Shown: positions 4,321 through 49,108 of the stretch, one piece after another | Layout: each line of letters starts with the position of its first letter | Position numbering within the stretch: position 1 is the first letter of the stretch | DNA from: Victivallales bacterium | GTDB taxonomy: Bacteria; Verrucomicrobiota; Lentisphaeria; Victivallales; GWF2-38-69 | NCBI GenBank assembly: GCA_021733985.1 | Contig: JAIPJT010000010.1 | Coordinates: 3,115-67,114 of the forward strand | DNA: 64,000 nt | Direction: 5' to 3' | Made by a program: the position numbers and the translations under genes | The notes under the pieces: model-generated | What the model was told of the DNA's origin: nothing | Seen by the model: only the letters and a program-made list of their open reading frames with translations | Database searches by the model: none

Positions 4321-5931
4321 TTAATAATCAGGCTCTTCAATTTCAAGAAACCTATGGTAGTTATTGGTCAACTCTCTAAAGCCTTTGATATATTCACGAA
4401 CTTGCTTTCTCTTAGCACAAAAGCTTACTGCACCGGCGGTTTTACCGTCTTCTGTTTCCACTTTCATATTTCCAATAGAAACAAATCCTCTCACCTGTAA
4501 ATCCGTTAGCGGACTTATAAAAATTTCAGTATTCTTCAAAACAGTAATGCCTGCAGTACCGACTACTTCTTTAACGGCTCTCGGCAGCAGTACTCCTACA
4601 GCCAAAATTACCGAAGGATGTACCATTGCATATATATCCAGCAATTCGTTTGTTTCACTTTTGCCATTTTTAGTTAAGTAAATCCTACTGTTTAATTCTC
4701 TTTGAAATTCTAAAAAATCTTTCAGTCTTCCCTGTCCTTTGTTATAATCGCCGGGTCTGATAAAAACCAGCCCGAGATTCCGGTCCTGAAGAACCGTATC
4801 CTCAACCTTCAAGTCAGTTGTTATGACAAATTTCGTATCTTTAAAGTATTCCCTCTGAGCAAGTCCCCATATTATCATACCGGGGATAGTAACAGCACCC
4901 TCCATTTCACTGAGATACTTTTCGTTCAGATATTTTCTAAGTTTTAAAATTTTTTCAAAGTGTACAAATATACGTCCCCTGTAAATTCCATCTCCGTGAT
5001 ACCTGATTTCAGGTGAAGCATCTTTCAGTGCGGGAAACTTAATCTTACCGGCCACCCCCCACTGTTTCTTTAAAGTCTCCAGCAGCTCTTCCATCGGCAT
5101 GCCGTCAACCGGTACATGATGATACTGGACCCATAAATCAGCTTCTTTATAGGAGGGGGTAAAACGACATACAACATTAAGCAGGCCGAAACCGGGATGT
5201 CTCTTGCTTTGCATATACGGCGTTTTAAGCCGTTCCTTAAGTAAATCACCGCCCGTCAATTCTTCAAAGTGTATGAAGGTACTTGTCAGAATTCTGTCAA
5301 TGTAATCAAAAAGGTCCTGTCGTCCAGTATGTGTTATCCCTGTAACCTTCCATGCCCAACGTCTGAGTTTTCCGGAAATAACTTTAGCTCTTTTAACATC
5401 CCCTACCCGTTTTTTTTCATTTTGGTTAAAAACAATTACTATTTTTCTCAGAGCTTTCCTTTTAATTCTTTCTGACAGCATAGCAAAAGAGACTCTCGTC
5501 TCGTCGAAATAGGGGATTATTTTTTCTAATTTCCCGCTTTCACTGAATACAGTTTCCGTAATATCTGTAAAATAAATTCTTTTTCTGCGGGCCCTGAAAA
5601 GGCTGTACTCGAAACACCAGTGGTAAGAGGCATGCTCACGTAAAAAAACCGCCAGTTTTTTTATTAAAAAATCTTTTGCCTCATCAAAATTTTTAGGTTT
5701 GTTTATTTTCCTGCAGTATTTTAAACGAAACACAGATAAGATAAATTTAGAATGCTCCTTTCTTAAAAAAATACCCGCAAATTTTCTCCAGCCGCTTTCT
5801 TCAACTTTAAACCCCATCTTTTTTATATACTGCAGTATTTTCAGAATACATATAAGAATTACAGCGCCTATATTCCATCTGTCTAATAAGCGCCTAAGCT
5901 TTAATCTTCTGTTAAATTTTCCATCAGGCAT
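4321..5931 (-). CDS. Membrane-anchored putative acyltransferase of the HHxxxDG (CAT / condensation / E2-like) superfamily
   Basis: 536-aa ORF. Hydrophobic N-terminal segment WNIGAVILICILKILQYI. Motif YHHVPVDGMPMEELL in the C-terminal half. I recognise no other family. Confidence 0.45.
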   Translation of the reverse strand: MPDGKFNRRLKLRRLLDRWNIGAVILICILKILQYIKKMGFKVEESGWRKFAGIFLRKEHSKFILSVFRLKYCRKINKPKNFDEAKDFLIKKLAVFLREHASYHWCFEYSLFRARRKRIYFTDITETVFSESGKLEKIIPYFDETRVSFAMLSERIKRKALRKIVIVFNQNEKKRVGDVKRAKVISGKLRRWAWKVTGITHTGRQDLFDYIDRILTSTFIHFEELTGGDLLKERLKTPYMQSKRHPGFGLLNVVCRFTPSYKEADLWVQYHHVPVDGMPMEELLETLKKQWGVAGKIKFPALKDASPEIRYHGDGIYRGRIFVHFEKILKLRKYLNEKYLSEMEGAVTIPGMIIWGLAQREYFKDTKFVITTDLKVEDTVLQDRNLGLVFIRPGDYNKGQGRLKDFLEFQRELNSRIYLTKNGKSETNELLDIYAMVHPSVILAVGVLLPRAVKEVVGTAGITVLKNTEIFISPLTDLQVRGFVSIGNMKVETEDGKTAGAVSFCAKRKQVREYIKGFRELTNNYHRFLEIEEPDY

Positions 5932-10019: not shown

Positions 10020-10118
10020 ATTAGAGCCTGTCCCGAAAGTAGCCTTCTGTCAGGCTCAGTAATCAGTCACCAGTTGTCAATTGACAGTATATTTTATTTA
10101 TGGATCAATGTCATTGAA

Positions 10119-11738
10119 TTATTGATCGTAAAAAGTTTTTTCAATATCACTTTTAACCTGCATAAGTTTGTCCACTCGCGGTCTTGTAATTCTAACTGGG
10201 GGTTCTATCGTATTCTTAATTTCAAGTTTTACACCGTCATAAAGTTCGCTATATTCATCATCACGGCTGAGAATTATAACTTTTTCCCCATTTTTAATAT
10301 CTTTACCGATTATCTTATTATAACCACTGCTTCTCCCCACAATGGTAACCTCTCTAAGCCTTGCCTTGCCTTCTCTGACTAAATACACGTAATTGTGTCC
10401 GGAAGCCTGATGAATGACAGCTTTTCCAGGTACATATATTCCTGCATCTGCCAGATTGGGAATTTCCACTTTTACCGATTCGCCCGGATAAAATTTCCAT
10501 CTGACATTTTCCTGTAATACAATATCTCCATCCTTTATACCCTTTTCCCCGACAGTAACAACTACATCACCCTGTTTAAGCCCTTCTGTCTTGTTTACTG
10601 AAACTATTTTCATGTTTCTCCCCAACCCAAGATCAAGAACCCTTTTTATATTTCCAACTTCAATGAAAATCTTTTCAATTTTAAATCTGGAAATCCCTTC
10701 AGACTTTTCATTATTTTTTTTATATGGTATAGTTTTTAAGACATATTTTCTATCATTCCTATCAGTCCTGACAGCTGCTATAGGGACTGCTAAAGAGTTC
10801 ATTATTTTTTTACCTGATATATGACTTATGTTCCCCAGCTTTCTGGCAATTTCATTGGTCCTGTCCATAGGAACAACAGGAAACCAAACATAAACTTTTT
10901 TTAATTTACTTTTCCGGATTTCCTGAGTCTTCGATCTACTAACGAAAACATTGGAGGGAACTACTGTGTTCTCGATGTATGCATAAAGCATATCATTTTT
11001 TACAGAAGTACAGCACCATGCGTCGACAGGTTCAATATTGCCTGAAGGATACACTTTAACCGTCGAGCCCTCTTTATAATTATCGATTATATCTTCAGGG
11101 AACGGAATTTTAACAAGAAGCGGTGTCATCTGTGTGACTTCAACAACATCATCTCCGGCTCCGGCCAGGGCTCCGGTTTCTTTAAGAACTTTTGTTACCA
11201 TGCCTGAAAAATGTGCTTTTATTACAGCCGCCTCATAAGCAAATTTACATTTTAATACTTCATTTTTTGCATTTTCAACGGCAAATTTCTTTTTATACAT
11301 TTCAGTTTTAGAATGAAAATGTTTTTTTTCACTGATAGCATTATTGTTAATCAGACGATTATCTCTGGCAAAATCATCCTTAGCATCTTCATAATTGACT
11401 TCTGCTATTTTTTTATTTAATACAGCCGCCTGCAGTTCATATTTTTTCTCTTCACGAATCTGCTTTGCAATTACAGACCCAGGCCTGATTACGTTGCCTT
11501 TTTCGTCTTCTATCTGTGAAAACACGTAATCTCCAACCTTTGCGACACTTTTTAGAATACCAGGATTCAAAAATGAAAAAGTTCCTTTTCTTATAGCTTC
11601 CACCTTTCCGGTATAAAAAGTATCAACAGGTTTAACGGTTTCTAATTTCATTACAGTTACAGGGACACCTGCATTTAGTAAAATATTTAATTTCAAGAGT
11701 AATAAAGCTCCCGCAAATATTAAAGTTCTTCTCTTCAT
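10119..11738 (-). CDS. Periplasmic adaptor / membrane-fusion (HlyD-like) family protein, unusually long
   Basis: Signal-like N-terminus MKRRTLIFAGALLLLKLNILLNA. A lipoyl-like half, a coiled-coil hairpin region, then AHFSGMVTKV typical of MFPs. The long beta-rich C-terminal extension brings it to 539 aa. Confidence 0.55.
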   Translation of the reverse strand: MKRRTLIFAGALLLLKLNILLNAGVPVTVMKLETVKPVDTFYTGKVEAIRKGTFSFLNPGILKSVAKVGDYVFSQIEDEKGNVIRPGSVIAKQIREEKKYELQAAVLNKKIAEVNYEDAKDDFARDNRLINNNAISEKKHFHSKTEMYKKKFAVENAKNEVLKCKFAYEAAVIKAHFSGMVTKVLKETGALAGAGDDVVEVTQMTPLLVKIPFPEDIIDNYKEGSTVKVYPSGNIEPVDAWCCTSVKNDMLYAYIENTVVPSNVFVSRSKTQEIRKSKLKKVYVWFPVVPMDRTNEIARKLGNISHISGKKIMNSLAVPIAAVRTDRNDRKYVLKTIPYKKNNEKSEGISRFKIEKIFIEVGNIKRVLDLGLGRNMKIVSVNKTEGLKQGDVVVTVGEKGIKDGDIVLQENVRWKFYPGESVKVEIPNLADAGIYVPGKAVIHQASGHNYVYLVREGKARLREVTIVGRSSGYNKIIGKDIKNGEKVIILSRDDEYSELYDGVKLEIKNTIEPPVRITRPRVDKLMQVKSDIEKTFYDQ

Positions 11739-19071: not shown

Positions 19072-19707
19072 AATATCCTCCTTGTTAATTCTTTGCAGCT
19101 GTTTTAGCTTAAACTAAACCGTTGAATTAAGGAAGCTGAAATACTGCTCTGCCGTACTGCTATAGTTGTTAGTTAGGACAGAAAAATGTATTAACAGCAA
19201 TACCCTGCCTGCTAACCGGGTGATTCGTTATCGTATAGTCAAGCATTTCAGTAAATCCAGGATACATTTTTTCGTTTTTATCCTTAATCCGGTGGTTTTG
19301 TTCAGTTAATAACATAGAAAAGATGCAGCCGGGACGTCTATATGCAGAGTAAAAGAAAAGTTTTAATGATGAAGCTTCTCCTACGCACTTATGCAACGTT
19401 TTAGGGCCAAATCTTCTGTTCCTGGAACAATATGTATACCTGCAAAACAGCCAAAATTCTGTCGCTTCATTAAACTATATGCTGTTATTATTAGAAATTA
19501 TAAAGATTTTTATATGTATTGTCAATAAGCTCCTTAATATGTTTTATATTATTATATCATCATGGAAAACTAAAATTCAAACAAAAAGCAAGCTCTATCC
19601 GGATTTGAATTTTAATATTCAAAGAGTTATTCTTAAAATGCAACCTATACTGATATGGACTGAATACAGCTTATTATAATTTTCAACTTAATTATAAATT
19701 TAAATTT

Positions 19708-27052: not shown

Positions 27053-28261
27053 ATGAATAAACTGACTGTTAAAGATATTGATCTGCAAGGTAAGAGAGTT
27101 GTAATGCGTGTAGACTTTAATGTTCCGATCCAAAATGGAAAAGTTGCTGATGACACACGCATAGTCAAAGCATTACCTACAATTAAATATGTTATTGAGC
27201 ATGGAGCTTCACTTACAATACTGAGTCATCTCGGCAGACCAAAAGGCCAGGTTAAACCTGAATTCAGTTTAAAACCTGCTGCAGACCATCTTTCAGAACT
27301 CTTAGGCAAAGAAGTAAAAACAGCTTCTGACTGTATCGGCGAAAAAGTGGTATCACAGGCAAATGCATTAAAGCCGGGAGAAATTCTTGTCTGTGAGAAC
27401 ACAAGATACCATAAAGAGGAAGATTTGAAATGCAAAACAGATGAAGACAGGGAACAGCAGGACAAGTTTACCAGAGAGTTAGCTAAACTCGGCAATGTAT
27501 ATGTAAACGATGCTTTCGGTACGGCACACAGAGCGCATGCCTCTACTGCGCTTATATGCAAATATGTCAGGCCCGCTGTTGCCGGTTTTCTCATGGAAAA
27601 AGAAATAGAATATTTAGGCGAAACCGTAGCCAGACCAAAACATCCATTTATCGCAATCATAGGCGGCGCTAAAGTTTCCGGAAAACTGGAAGTCCTTACA
27701 AGTCTTATCAACAAAGTTGATTCTATTCTTATCGGCGGAGGAATGGCCTATACATTTATGAAGGCGCTCGGTCATAAAATAGGTAATTCTCTTGTAGAAG
27801 CAGAACTTATCGATACTGCAAAAGAAATTCTTAAAAAAGCTGAGGAGAAAGGCGTTAAGTTTATGCTCCCGGTAGATAATTTGGCTGCAGACAAATTCGA
27901 CAATGATGCTGAAGTAAAAACTGTCGAATATGATATACCCGATGGCTGGATGGGTCTTGATATTGGTCCGAAAACTGTGGCTGAATACACAGATGAAATA
28001 GCAAAGGCGGAGACAATTGTCTGGAACGGTCCGATGGGATGCTTTGAGATGCCAAACTTTGCTGAAGCTACTATGTCGATCTGTAAAGCTGTAGCTGAAA
28101 GTGATGCGACAAGCATAATCGGCGGCGGCGACTCAGTTTCAGCTGTAAACAAAAGCGGACTGGCAGATAAGATGAGCCATGTTTCAACCGGTGGCGGAGC
28201 TTCACTGGAATATCTTGAAGGAAAAACACTTCCCGGGGTAGCTTCACTTGATGATAAGTAG
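27053..28261 (+). CDS. pgk: Phosphoglycerate kinase
   Basis: RVDFNVP, FGTAHRAHAST, IIGGGDS, STGGGASLE. Confidence 0.96.
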   Translation: MNKLTVKDIDLQGKRVVMRVDFNVPIQNGKVADDTRIVKALPTIKYVIEHGASLTILSHLGRPKGQVKPEFSLKPAADHLSELLGKEVKTASDCIGEKVVSQANALKPGEILVCENTRYHKEEDLKCKTDEDREQQDKFTRELAKLGNVYVNDAFGTAHRAHASTALICKYVRPAVAGFLMEKEIEYLGETVARPKHPFIAIIGGAKVSGKLEVLTSLINKVDSILIGGGMAYTFMKALGHKIGNSLVEAELIDTAKEILKKAEEKGVKFMLPVDNLAADKFDNDAEVKTVEYDIPDGWMGLDIGPKTVAEYTDEIAKAETIVWNGPMGCFEMPNFAEATMSICKAVAESDATSIIGGGDSVSAVNKSGLADKMSHVSTGGGASLEYLEGKTLPGVASLDDK

Positions 28262-28341
28262 GACCTCAATCCTATTCAGTTAGAGGATTGATGACAGCAG
28301 ACAAAAGAGGTCGGCGGCCGAAAAAGCTGTAGATTATAGAT

Positions 28342-28527
28342 CAATGCCGTTGAATTAAGGCAAAATTATTGATTTTGCCGCGTTCACGGAACCGGGGGAC
28401 TGGTTCCCTCCACCACGAATTCTGTATTCTGTGGAGGGAATCAATCCTTCTGTGTCGGCCATAGTACAGCAACTTCTGTACGACGGCTGATGATTCCGAA
28501 AGCATAATCCTTAATTCAATGACATTG
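28342..28527. mobile_element. MITE-like non-autonomous element (186 bp) with 19-bp imperfect TIRs and a 10-bp target-site duplication
   Basis: Left TIR caatgccgttgaattaagg. Right TIR (rc) caatgtcattgaattaagg, 17/19. Perfect direct repeat gattatagat at 28332-28341 and 28528-28537. Internal hairpins. No ORF. Confidence 0.8.
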
Positions 28528-28904
28528 GATTATAGATAACAACCTTTAATTATAATCTGCAGCTCAGCGTCTCCGATTTCCCTTCCTCCTGTTGATTGAT
28601 GTTGCAAACAACTTGCAAGTTACATCTATGGCTAAAACATTAATTGTTTATGACATAATGCAGAGCGGATTACATATATTTCCTCTCTGAGCCCATGGAT
28701 AAAAGCTTTTCTCCGGGGGGCCTGAATTAACTCCCGTCTGCATAATTTGGGTTAAACCAAATGTACTGGAAATTTGCACCTGCGCACGTGTTACAGCTAA
28801 ATAGTAGTAATAAGAAAGTTCACTATTGTAGTTCACCTTATCTACTACCTGAGCAATCAACTGAAGTTTTTGTCATATTTTAAAAATACGGATTAATAAG
28901 AACA

Positions 28905-29633
28905 ATGAACATCAATTATACTACTCCACGGCAGTTTTGTGAGGGAATTTCAGCACTGAACGAAGTTTCCGGACTAAATTACACTCGCCGACCTAAATAC
29001 AGATTCGATCCTAACGATACGGATTGGTGGTTAGTGCCCAGTACAGCCAACCCGCATTACAAATATGCAAAACTGGTTTTTTCACGGGATAATATAAAGA
29101 AAAGTATACTTACAGCCGGACTTCACATAGAAAAAGGACTGGATAAACAGGTAAAAGCTGTATACTCCTCAAAGAAAGCTTCTAATTTTATCATGGATGA
29201 AAGCTGGTACTGGAACAGATTTATTACTAAATTAAATGACAACTTTTTTTTTAAGATCCTGGAGAACCTGTTTACCGGCTTCCCCAGTATTAAAATTTCT
29301 ATTGACGGAGGTTATGTTTCTGAACCTACTAAATTTGATCCTTATCAGGAAAAAAAACTGGGATGGGACAAGTATATCTTTACATGGAAAAATGAAAATA
29401 TTGACAATCTGTTATTATCCGAAACAAAAAGGAATGCTTATATTTTAAAACTCCATCATATAAAATGTATAGAAGACCTCAGATACTTTTTATTAAAAAT
29501 AAGCAACGACCCATGGCTTTGGCTCAACCTGAATATAACCGTACCTTTCACAATCCATGATAAATCAACCATGACAGAAATTGACCTCTGGAACTGCTGT
29601 TTTAAAATATTGAATAAACTAATTAAAATCTGA
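28905..29633 (+). CDS. Hypothetical protein (Trp/Tyr-rich, no TM)
   Basis: 242-aa ORF, no family recognised. Confidence 0.5.
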   Translation: MNINYTTPRQFCEGISALNEVSGLNYTRRPKYRFDPNDTDWWLVPSTANPHYKYAKLVFSRDNIKKSILTAGLHIEKGLDKQVKAVYSSKKASNFIMDESWYWNRFITKLNDNFFFKILENLFTGFPSIKISIDGGYVSEPTKFDPYQEKKLGWDKYIFTWKNENIDNLLLSETKRNAYILKLHHIKCIEDLRYFLLKISNDPWLWLNLNITVPFTIHDKSTMTEIDLWNCCFKILNKLIKI

Positions 29634-34452: not shown

Positions 34453-34714
34453 TTGACTGTACCCTAATATTTAAAACAAACTTTATAACACATGTATTTA
34501 TTTGATATTCAACAGAGTTGAATTAAGCATCGAATTCTTTATAAAAGTCTAAAAATAAGGACCGGTAGCGGTTTAAAACCTTATACATATAGCTCTTATT
34601 TATTATAATCTTTTTAAAGCAACAAATCTATACATAAAAATGTAGATTATATACCCAAAACGTTTTGGTTTATTTATCCGTATCGAATGATATGGTCCAA
34701 AAATAAAATGTATG

Positions 34715-48607: not shown

Positions 48608-49108
48608 TTTGTTTATTTGTTGAGCATTTAAGGCTCAACACACTATTTAAGATTACTATTTTCCTCAGAAAAATGCTTGTTCCCTCATTTTTCTATGTTT
48701 TTTGTGCTATAAAATCAAGAGAATTCTCAATACCGTAAGCTCTAATTTAAAAACAAGGAGACACTCTCCTGAAAACAAATATTTTAAAACTGGTAAAAAT
48801 GGTTTGTTACAAATCAATGCCATTGAATTAAGGTAAAATTATTGATTTTACTGTATCCACGAATGTGGACTACCTTTCTTCAAGAAACTGCTTAATAACC
48901 ATTCCACCAAATTTTCAAAGAACACGAAAAAAGAATTTCTTTCTTTTTTCAACAACTGTTTTTCATCATCCTGCTTAAGCAGGAAATAAAGATAAATATT
49001 ATATAAAATGCGAACTTGAGAGCGGCTTTATGCTGATTTTTCTCTTGAATTCCTGCCGCAATATGATTCAAACGATTAAACGAATCAGCAATTCAACAAA
49101 TAAACAAA
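48608..49108. repeat. ORF-free 501-bp segment bounded by a perfect 16-bp inverted repeat
   Basis: tttgtttatttgttga at 48608-48623 and its exact reverse complement at 49093-49108. The interior contains a family F copy and several hairpins. Confidence 0.7.
48813..48853 (+). repeat. Repeat family F: copy of the left end of the 28342 MITE
   Basis: atcaatgccattgaattaaggtaaaattattgattttactg, 37/41 identical to 28340-28380. Confidence 0.8.

Follow-up and report, generated by a model that had tools for sequence, protein, structure and literature searches.

A 186-bp MITE-like insertion with IS4-subgroup ends in the spacer downstream of pgk in a Victivallales bacterium

The cut-and-paste chemistry of transposition has been studied in the IS4-family members IS10 and IS50. 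Another member of the family, IS231, has a miniature derivative, MIC231, which is mobilised in trans. ISPa1635 is an autonomous IS4-family element of 1636 bp from Pseudomonas plasmids, where it lies beside blaPER-1; its ends start with CAATGTCATC and it is flanked by a 10-bp duplication, AGGGAATTTC. The IS4 subgroup, as tabulated by De Palmenaer et al. (2008, Table 1, PMC2266710), comprises elements of 1400-1650 bp that are flanked by direct repeats of 10-13 bp and have ends of the form -AATR--------WTW----. The prototype of this subgroup is IS4 of Escherichia coli K-12 (insG), an element of 1426 bp whose ends are TAATGCCAGTCAGTTAAGC and TAATGCCGATCAGTTAAGG and whose target duplication is 12 bp long.

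The window, which here means the whole 64-kb stretch of Victivallales DNA that was analysed, harbours a 186-bp element at positions 28342-28527, in the spacer 3' of the pgk gene and without a transposase of its own. With a probability of roughly 0.9, this element is a non-autonomous (MITE-type) member of the IS4 subgroup that was inserted by a transposase supplied in trans, using a 10-bp staggered cut. The features of the locus, in window coordinates, are the following.

27053-28261, plus strand: pgk, phosphoglycerate kinase (Pfam PF00162, E 1e-159), upstream of the insertion, its product identical to a protein attributed by NCBI to a Victivallales bacterium MAG
28325-28338, no strand: left arm of a pre-existing target hairpin, AGCTGTAGATTATA, an inverted repeat parted from its partner by the insertion
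28332-28341, no strand: left copy of the target-site duplication, GATTATAGAT, abutting the left element end
28342-28360, plus strand: left terminal inverted repeat (IRL), CAATGCCGTTGAATTAAGG, from sequence reading and end-pattern scan
28359-28379, plus strand: subterminal hairpin, GGCAAAAT-tattg-ATTTTGCC (as a whole GGYAAAATTATTGATTTTRC), an inverted repeat with a counterpart at 48832-48852
28361-28508, no strand: interior of 148 bp, non-coding and strongly self-complementary, from folding and from ORF and homology searches
28388-28407, 28406-28438 and 28455-28490: interior hairpins, from inverted-repeat search and folding
28509-28527, minus strand: right terminal inverted repeat (IRR), CCTTAATTCAATGACATTG, which reads CAATGTCATTGAATTAAGG on the minus strand
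28528-28537, no strand: right copy of the target-site duplication, GATTATAGAT, abutting the right element end
28551-28564, no strand: right arm of the target hairpin, TATAATCTGCAGCT, an inverted repeat

A preliminary description of this DNA had claimed a MITE-like insertion of 186 bp, with 19-bp terminal inverted repeats complementary at 17 of 19 positions and a perfect 10-bp target-site duplication. These measures hold base for base, and the MITE-like character is borne out by other genomes, in which the same ends bound both short and full-length IS4-family elements. The two ends disagree at positions 6 and 8, and it is these positions that also vary across the family (Y and R). The direct repeat GATTATAGAT occurs twice in the whole window, both times touching an end of the element, and a 10-mer would match by chance at two given positions with a probability of about 1e-6. 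Of the features by which MITEs are recognized, small size, inverted ends, a target duplication and the lack of a transposase gene are present in the 186-bp element. The tip of the ends, CAATGnCATTG, is a 5+1+5 palindrome (28342-28352 and 28517-28527, as well as in all end loci aligned), and because of this palindrome the right end also matches the left one as a direct repeat, so that each end is found in both orientations. The element lies in a spacer that had been given as 643 bp, which agrees with the distance from the end of pgk to the next ORF, starting at 28905 (spacer 28262-28904).

The same ends are widely distributed in other genomes. In a scan of one genome per species, in which the exact 19-mer CAATGYCRTTGAATTAAGG was demanded on one end, this sequence was found in at least 111 genome stretches from at least 8 phyla. 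Among the matches listed, the phyla are Planctomycetota, Verrucomicrobiota, Lentisphaerota, Bacteroidota, Thermodesulfobacteriota, Actinomycetota, Pseudomonadota and Campylobacterota, and the hosts include Scalindua and other Brocadiaceae, Victivallales, many Bacteroidota, Desulfobacteraceae, Legionellaceae, Parabeggiatoa and Campylobacteraceae. Several matches coincide with true contig ends, the interior being directed off the contig, as expected of a repeat at which assemblies break. The sequence immediately after ...AAGG varies by lineage, and therefore only the 19-nt ends are common to these loci.

Among the loci listed (at least 111), paired inverted ends delimit 54 distinct elements, 42 of which are smaller than 600 bp; the short elements range from 63 bp, the shortest, to 366 bp, and eight of the 54 are 1445-1571 bp long. 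Exact flanking repeats of 10 bp were found in 14 of the 54 elements and exact repeats of 11 bp in four, and in 22 of them the repeats agree at 9 or more of 10 positions. The sequence of the flanking repeat differs from copy to copy, which identifies the 10-mer as target DNA rather than as a part of the element; the possibility, considered in the preliminary description, that other copies carry this same 10-mer at both ends did not materialize, as the duplications have a different sequence each time. Near-identical elements of 145 bp are found in another Victivallales MAG (L012, L023, L062, L072, L073), each with its own perfect duplication, and the 125-bp elements of L081 and L084 are also near-identical to each other and have their own 10-bp duplications. 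Given that near-identical short elements occur at several sites with duplications of their own, miniature forms of this IS clade do transpose.

Some regularities were observed around these copies. A similar flank, CCCTCCC..TGATGGG, stands just before the end in seven loci (L004, L011, L048, L057, L071, L096 and L111), which come from Brocadiaceae and other Planctomycetota MAGs, L096 being labelled Flavobacteria; this flank could reflect a target preference or belong to a larger composite repeat. Miniature copies from different phyla also lie in or beside short tandem heptamer arrays (L021, L040, L050, L072 and L073), examples of the heptamers being GTGGTCA, TCGGTAG, CAATACC, GGTGATC and ACTGAAC, and in L021 and L072 another end-like sequence follows directly. 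The Scalindua/Brocadiaceae miniatures L029, L036, L042 and L055 contain a GC-rich hairpin with a run of T or A on at least one side, which looks like a terminator, possibly a bidirectional one.

The family assignment comes from transposase-bearing relatives that share these ends and reside in genomes other than the source genome. Some examples of full-length elements are one of 1571 bp in an Actinomycetes MAG (L010:3633-5203), with several copies that have perfect duplications, one of 1554 bp in Verrucomicrobiales (L049:2579-4132) and one of 1445 bp in a Bacteroidetes MAG (L082:81-1525). Each contains one ORF of 393-424 aa, and with E values from 3e-44 to 4e-64 all three ORFs exceed the curated threshold of the NCBIfam model NF033592 (IS4 family transposase). 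The Pfam domain DDE_Tnp_1 is found in all three, accompanied by Nterm_IS4 in L010, and the YREK motif (Y-x2-R-x3-E-x6-K) is present in all three translations. The transposases of the full-length elements (those of L010, L049, L082 and L121:6091-7516) are only 25-28% identical to one another and to E. coli InsG, so that the ends appear far better conserved than the enzymes; the conservation of the ends is in part a product of selection, because the scan demanded the exact 19-mer on one end.

The window's own ends agree with this assignment. The left end CAATGCCGTTGAATTAAGG fits the published subgroup consensus, as positions 2-5 read AATG and positions 14-16 read TTA. Its duplication, at 10 bp, lies within the published IS4-subgroup range, and so do the lengths of the full-length relatives. 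The right end is similar over 34 nt (88%) to the end of the full-length 1554-bp element of L049. A literature search for the end sequence returned just unrelated primer matches. The element is real and cleanly inserted, and it is ordinary in kind.

When up to 3 mismatches are allowed, the end pattern is found 4 times in the window, as against 0.02 expected, and there is one intact 186-bp copy together with end fragments at 48815, 10106 and 19114. The fragments outside the intact copy, and one further candidate, are as follows.

48815-48853, plus strand: second left end of the same sub-family, with the 19-nt end and the subterminal hairpin, from end-pattern scan and alignment
10106-10121, plus strand (match region from 10104): end fragment of 16 nt, CAATGTCATTGAATTA, abutting the stop of a minus-strand ORF at 10119-11738
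19114-19132, plus strand: decayed end fragment, CTAAACCGTTGAATTAAGG, identical at 16/19 positions and at 14/14 over 19119-19132
34517-34527, plus strand: possible end fragment, GTTGAATTAAG, 11/11, weak and perhaps due to chance

The second left-end copy had already been recognized at 48813-48853 and is indeed identical to the element's left 41 nt at 37 of 41 positions, diverging thereafter, and its left flank is unlike that of the intact element. A change from a G-C to a G-U pair in its hairpin had been reported as well; the change is there, accompanied by a compensatory change from a C-G to a U-A pair that the earlier account had passed over. Right ends were searched for, both for the 48815 copy and for the other fragments, with nothing convincing found, and this copy is solo or truncated. 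The solo fragment reported at 19119-19132 stands, as 14/14 or, if extended to 19114-19132, as 16/19. The one reported at 34516-34529 matches at 11/11 positions over 34517-34527, which is weak. The fragment at 10104-10121 was overlooked at the time. It overlaps the stop codon (the reverse complement of 10119-10121) of a 539-aa ORF on the minus strand, and an old insertion may have defined the present 3' end of this gene (10119-11738).

No transposase gene was detected in the 64-kb window by tblastn, in keeping with the earlier statement that the window holds no autonomous IS with these ends. A second full-length 186-bp copy was found neither in the window, nor in the at least 111 loci, nor in the metagenome or viral pattern scans, and no parent element sharing the 41-nt left module was found among the loci examined. 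The metagenome matches to the left-module pattern TTAAGGYAAAATTATTGATTTT were rejected as chance matches, all five being without the upstream end sequence, and a scan of viral contigs with TTGAATTAAGGYAAAATTATTG gave 0 matches. An independently assembled Logan contig from another sample, SRR12088347 (L001), in which pgk is 100% identical, breaks at the position corresponding to 28369, 28 nt inside the left end. Such a break is consistent with a repeat or with strain polymorphism, and it hints weakly at further copies in that sample.

These copy numbers bear on another account of the element's origin, according to which a full-length IS4-family element inserted here and was subsequently reduced by the deletion of its interior. 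This account differs in the history alone and keeps both the family and the insertion event. It would explain why one full 186-bp copy is known, and the 48815 fragment, which shares the first 41 nt and then diverges, resembles one of several separate decay products of a single parent; the 34 nt that the right end has in common with a full-length element also agree with it. Nevertheless, a shrunken remnant of this kind is unlikely, since the same ends elsewhere bound families of near-identical short elements with their own 10-bp duplications (the 145-bp and 125-bp families), since the interior alone (28361-28508) folds with a z-score of -6.0, a degree of self-complementarity that one meets in MITEs and would not look for in the product of a random deletion, and since the broken Logan contig points, if weakly, to more copies. 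Transposition as an already miniature element is the more probable of the two histories.

When positions 28342-28537, i.e. the element and one copy of the repeat, are deleted in silico, AGCTGTAGATTATA is rejoined with its complement TATAATCTGCAGCT into a hairpin with a 15-bp stem and a folding energy of -28.8 kcal/mol (z -5.4, and z -5.0 in a second test), located about 60 nt 3' of the pgk stop in the site sequence AAAAAGCTGTAGATTATAGATAACAACC. As the hairpin is restored by the deletion, it lends independent support to the insertion event. Hairpin targeting as a trait of the whole clade was considered and rejected: over 23 reconstructed empty sites (those of 22 other elements with good duplications and the window's) the median z is about -0.1, three of the 23 lie below z -2, and the window's site stands alone at z -5.0. 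On the minus strand (28320-28564), TTTTT comes right after the restored hairpin, which for this reason has more the look of a terminator that serves leftward transcription, such as that of the 70-aa ORF at 28648-28860, than of one that serves pgk. A promoter and terminator scan of 28200-28950 found nothing exceeding the shuffled expectation.

The pgk loci of the closest relatives retrieved (L118, L119 and L120, from position 5216), in which the pgk product is 83-85% identical at the amino acid level, were compared with the window. The order manC-gapdh-pgk is kept in these nearest relatives and breaks immediately after pgk, where the downstream genes differ in each. In these loci pgk is followed, at a distance of about 25 nt, by a plain intrinsic terminator, and neither the element nor an end sequence is present. 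A usable orthologous empty site was found in none of the three; their loci are no true empty sites because the downstream genes differ and the spacers are unalignable. AAAAGCT and AACCTTTAA occur both in the pgk terminator of the relatives, AAAAAAAAGCTAACCTTTAACGGGTTAGCTTTTTTT, and in the region of the window's split hairpin.

Concerning the interior of the element, the three hairpins claimed in the preliminary description are present, as seen by inverted-repeat search and by folding. The interior had also been described as free of ORFs, and this is correct in practice, for the sole ORF within the element, of 54 aa on the minus strand (28341-28505), matches no Pfam family and has no homologue among 5.8 billion proteins. 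When the interior was compared by BLAST with all 120 fetched loci, similarity was confined to the ends. In a search of 28100-28950 against Rfam 15 with E values up to 10, the best match had an E of 0.9 or worse, far under the gathering thresholds, and at gathering scores the whole window gave just tRNAs and chance-level matches. The hairpins of the interior are best read as filler, either left over or self-complementary, of the sort that MITEs usually contain.

A structured non-coding RNA, or a regulatory element in the 3'-UTR of pgk whose closing stem is formed by the inverted ends, is very improbable in the light of these results. The 186 bp fold very stably (z -8.9 on the plus strand), they lie directly downstream of pgk, and one compensatory change separates the subterminal hairpins of the two window copies, all of which an RNA would account for. 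On the other hand, the minus strand folds equally well (z -7.9), as symmetry at the DNA level predicts, no Rfam family matches even at permissive E values, and the interior is conserved nowhere among the loci compared. Moreover, the supposed closing stem is a conserved IS4-family transposon end flanked by a target duplication, and relatives with pgk 81-85% identical do without the element, having a plain terminator in its place. Hardly credible at all is the view that the two ends are palindromic operators to which a dimeric transcription factor binds, suggested by the palindromic tip, by the match of the right site to the left in both orientations and by box-like fragments in four other intergenic spacers of the window, given that the conserved unit is an asymmetric 19-mer ending in ...GAATTAAGG rather than the palindrome alone, that elsewhere this 19-mer forms inverted pairs with 10-bp duplications, also around transposase genes, and that a sequence bound by a host regulator would not be the same in 8 phyla.

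For the preferred reading, a MITE-type element moved in trans, the following course of events can be proposed. An IS4-subgroup DDE transposase, encoded by a full-length element that is or once was elsewhere in the genome, would bind the two 19-bp ends, excise the DNA between them and insert it into a target whose strands are cut 10 bp apart, and repair of this stagger would leave GATTATAGAT on both sides. The insertion would have landed in the left arm and loop of the 15-bp-stem hairpin after the pgk stop. The cut-and-paste chemistry is probable by analogy with IS10 and IS50, and the transposase was probably supplied in trans. Because the insertion splits a strong hairpin just 3' of pgk, it may also have altered how transcripts end there.

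For annotation, the consequence is that a structured non-coding block of 186 bp and four related fragments are to be read as transposon debris, not as RNA genes or regulatory sites. They also indicate that elements of the IS4 subgroup have been active in this uncultured Victivallales lineage. At most of the loci listed (at least 111), short elements or solo ends are present in place of transposase genes, and it may tentatively be proposed that the window's element belongs to an undescribed and very widely spread clade of the IS4 subgroup, whose 19-bp end, with its palindromic tip, is near-invariant over at least 8 phyla, whose transposases are only 25-28% identical and which freely produces miniatures. 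If so, the ends would be fixed more tightly than the enzyme that acts on them, an unusual constraint that could stem from a conserved DNA-binding module or from a required structure of the ends. The 19-mer CAATGYCRTTGAATTAAGG can serve as a practical probe for a cross-phylum clade of IS4-type elements and their miniatures, which fragment metagenome assemblies.

Among the described systems, IS4 of E. coli is close to the window's element in its ends, TAATGCCGATCAGTTAAGG being identical to the left end CAATGCCGTTGAATTAAGG at 15 of 19 positions, and its InsG protein, which falls under the same NCBIfam model as the transposases linked to the window's ends, aligns with them at BLASTP E values of 1e-15 to 1e-35 and 25-27% identity. 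IS4 differs in having no palindromic tip, whereas the window's element has CAATGnCATTG, and in being a transposon of 1426 bp, in contrast to 186 bp without a transposase gene. Of the named insertion sequences, ISPa1635 comes nearest to the L049 transposase (34% amino acid identity over 98% of the length), and 13-14 of the 19 positions in its ends agree with the consensus of the window's ends, with the inner half of the end reading …CAACTTTGGA in ISPa1635 and …TTGAATTAAGG in the window. MIC231 belongs to the IS231 subgroup and the window's element, known from a single 186-bp copy, to the IS4 subgroup. In its general features, the element nevertheless resembles bacterial MITEs and MIC231, as it is short, non-coding and intergenic, with the ends of an IS family, a duplication of the length typical of that family and a self-complementary interior.
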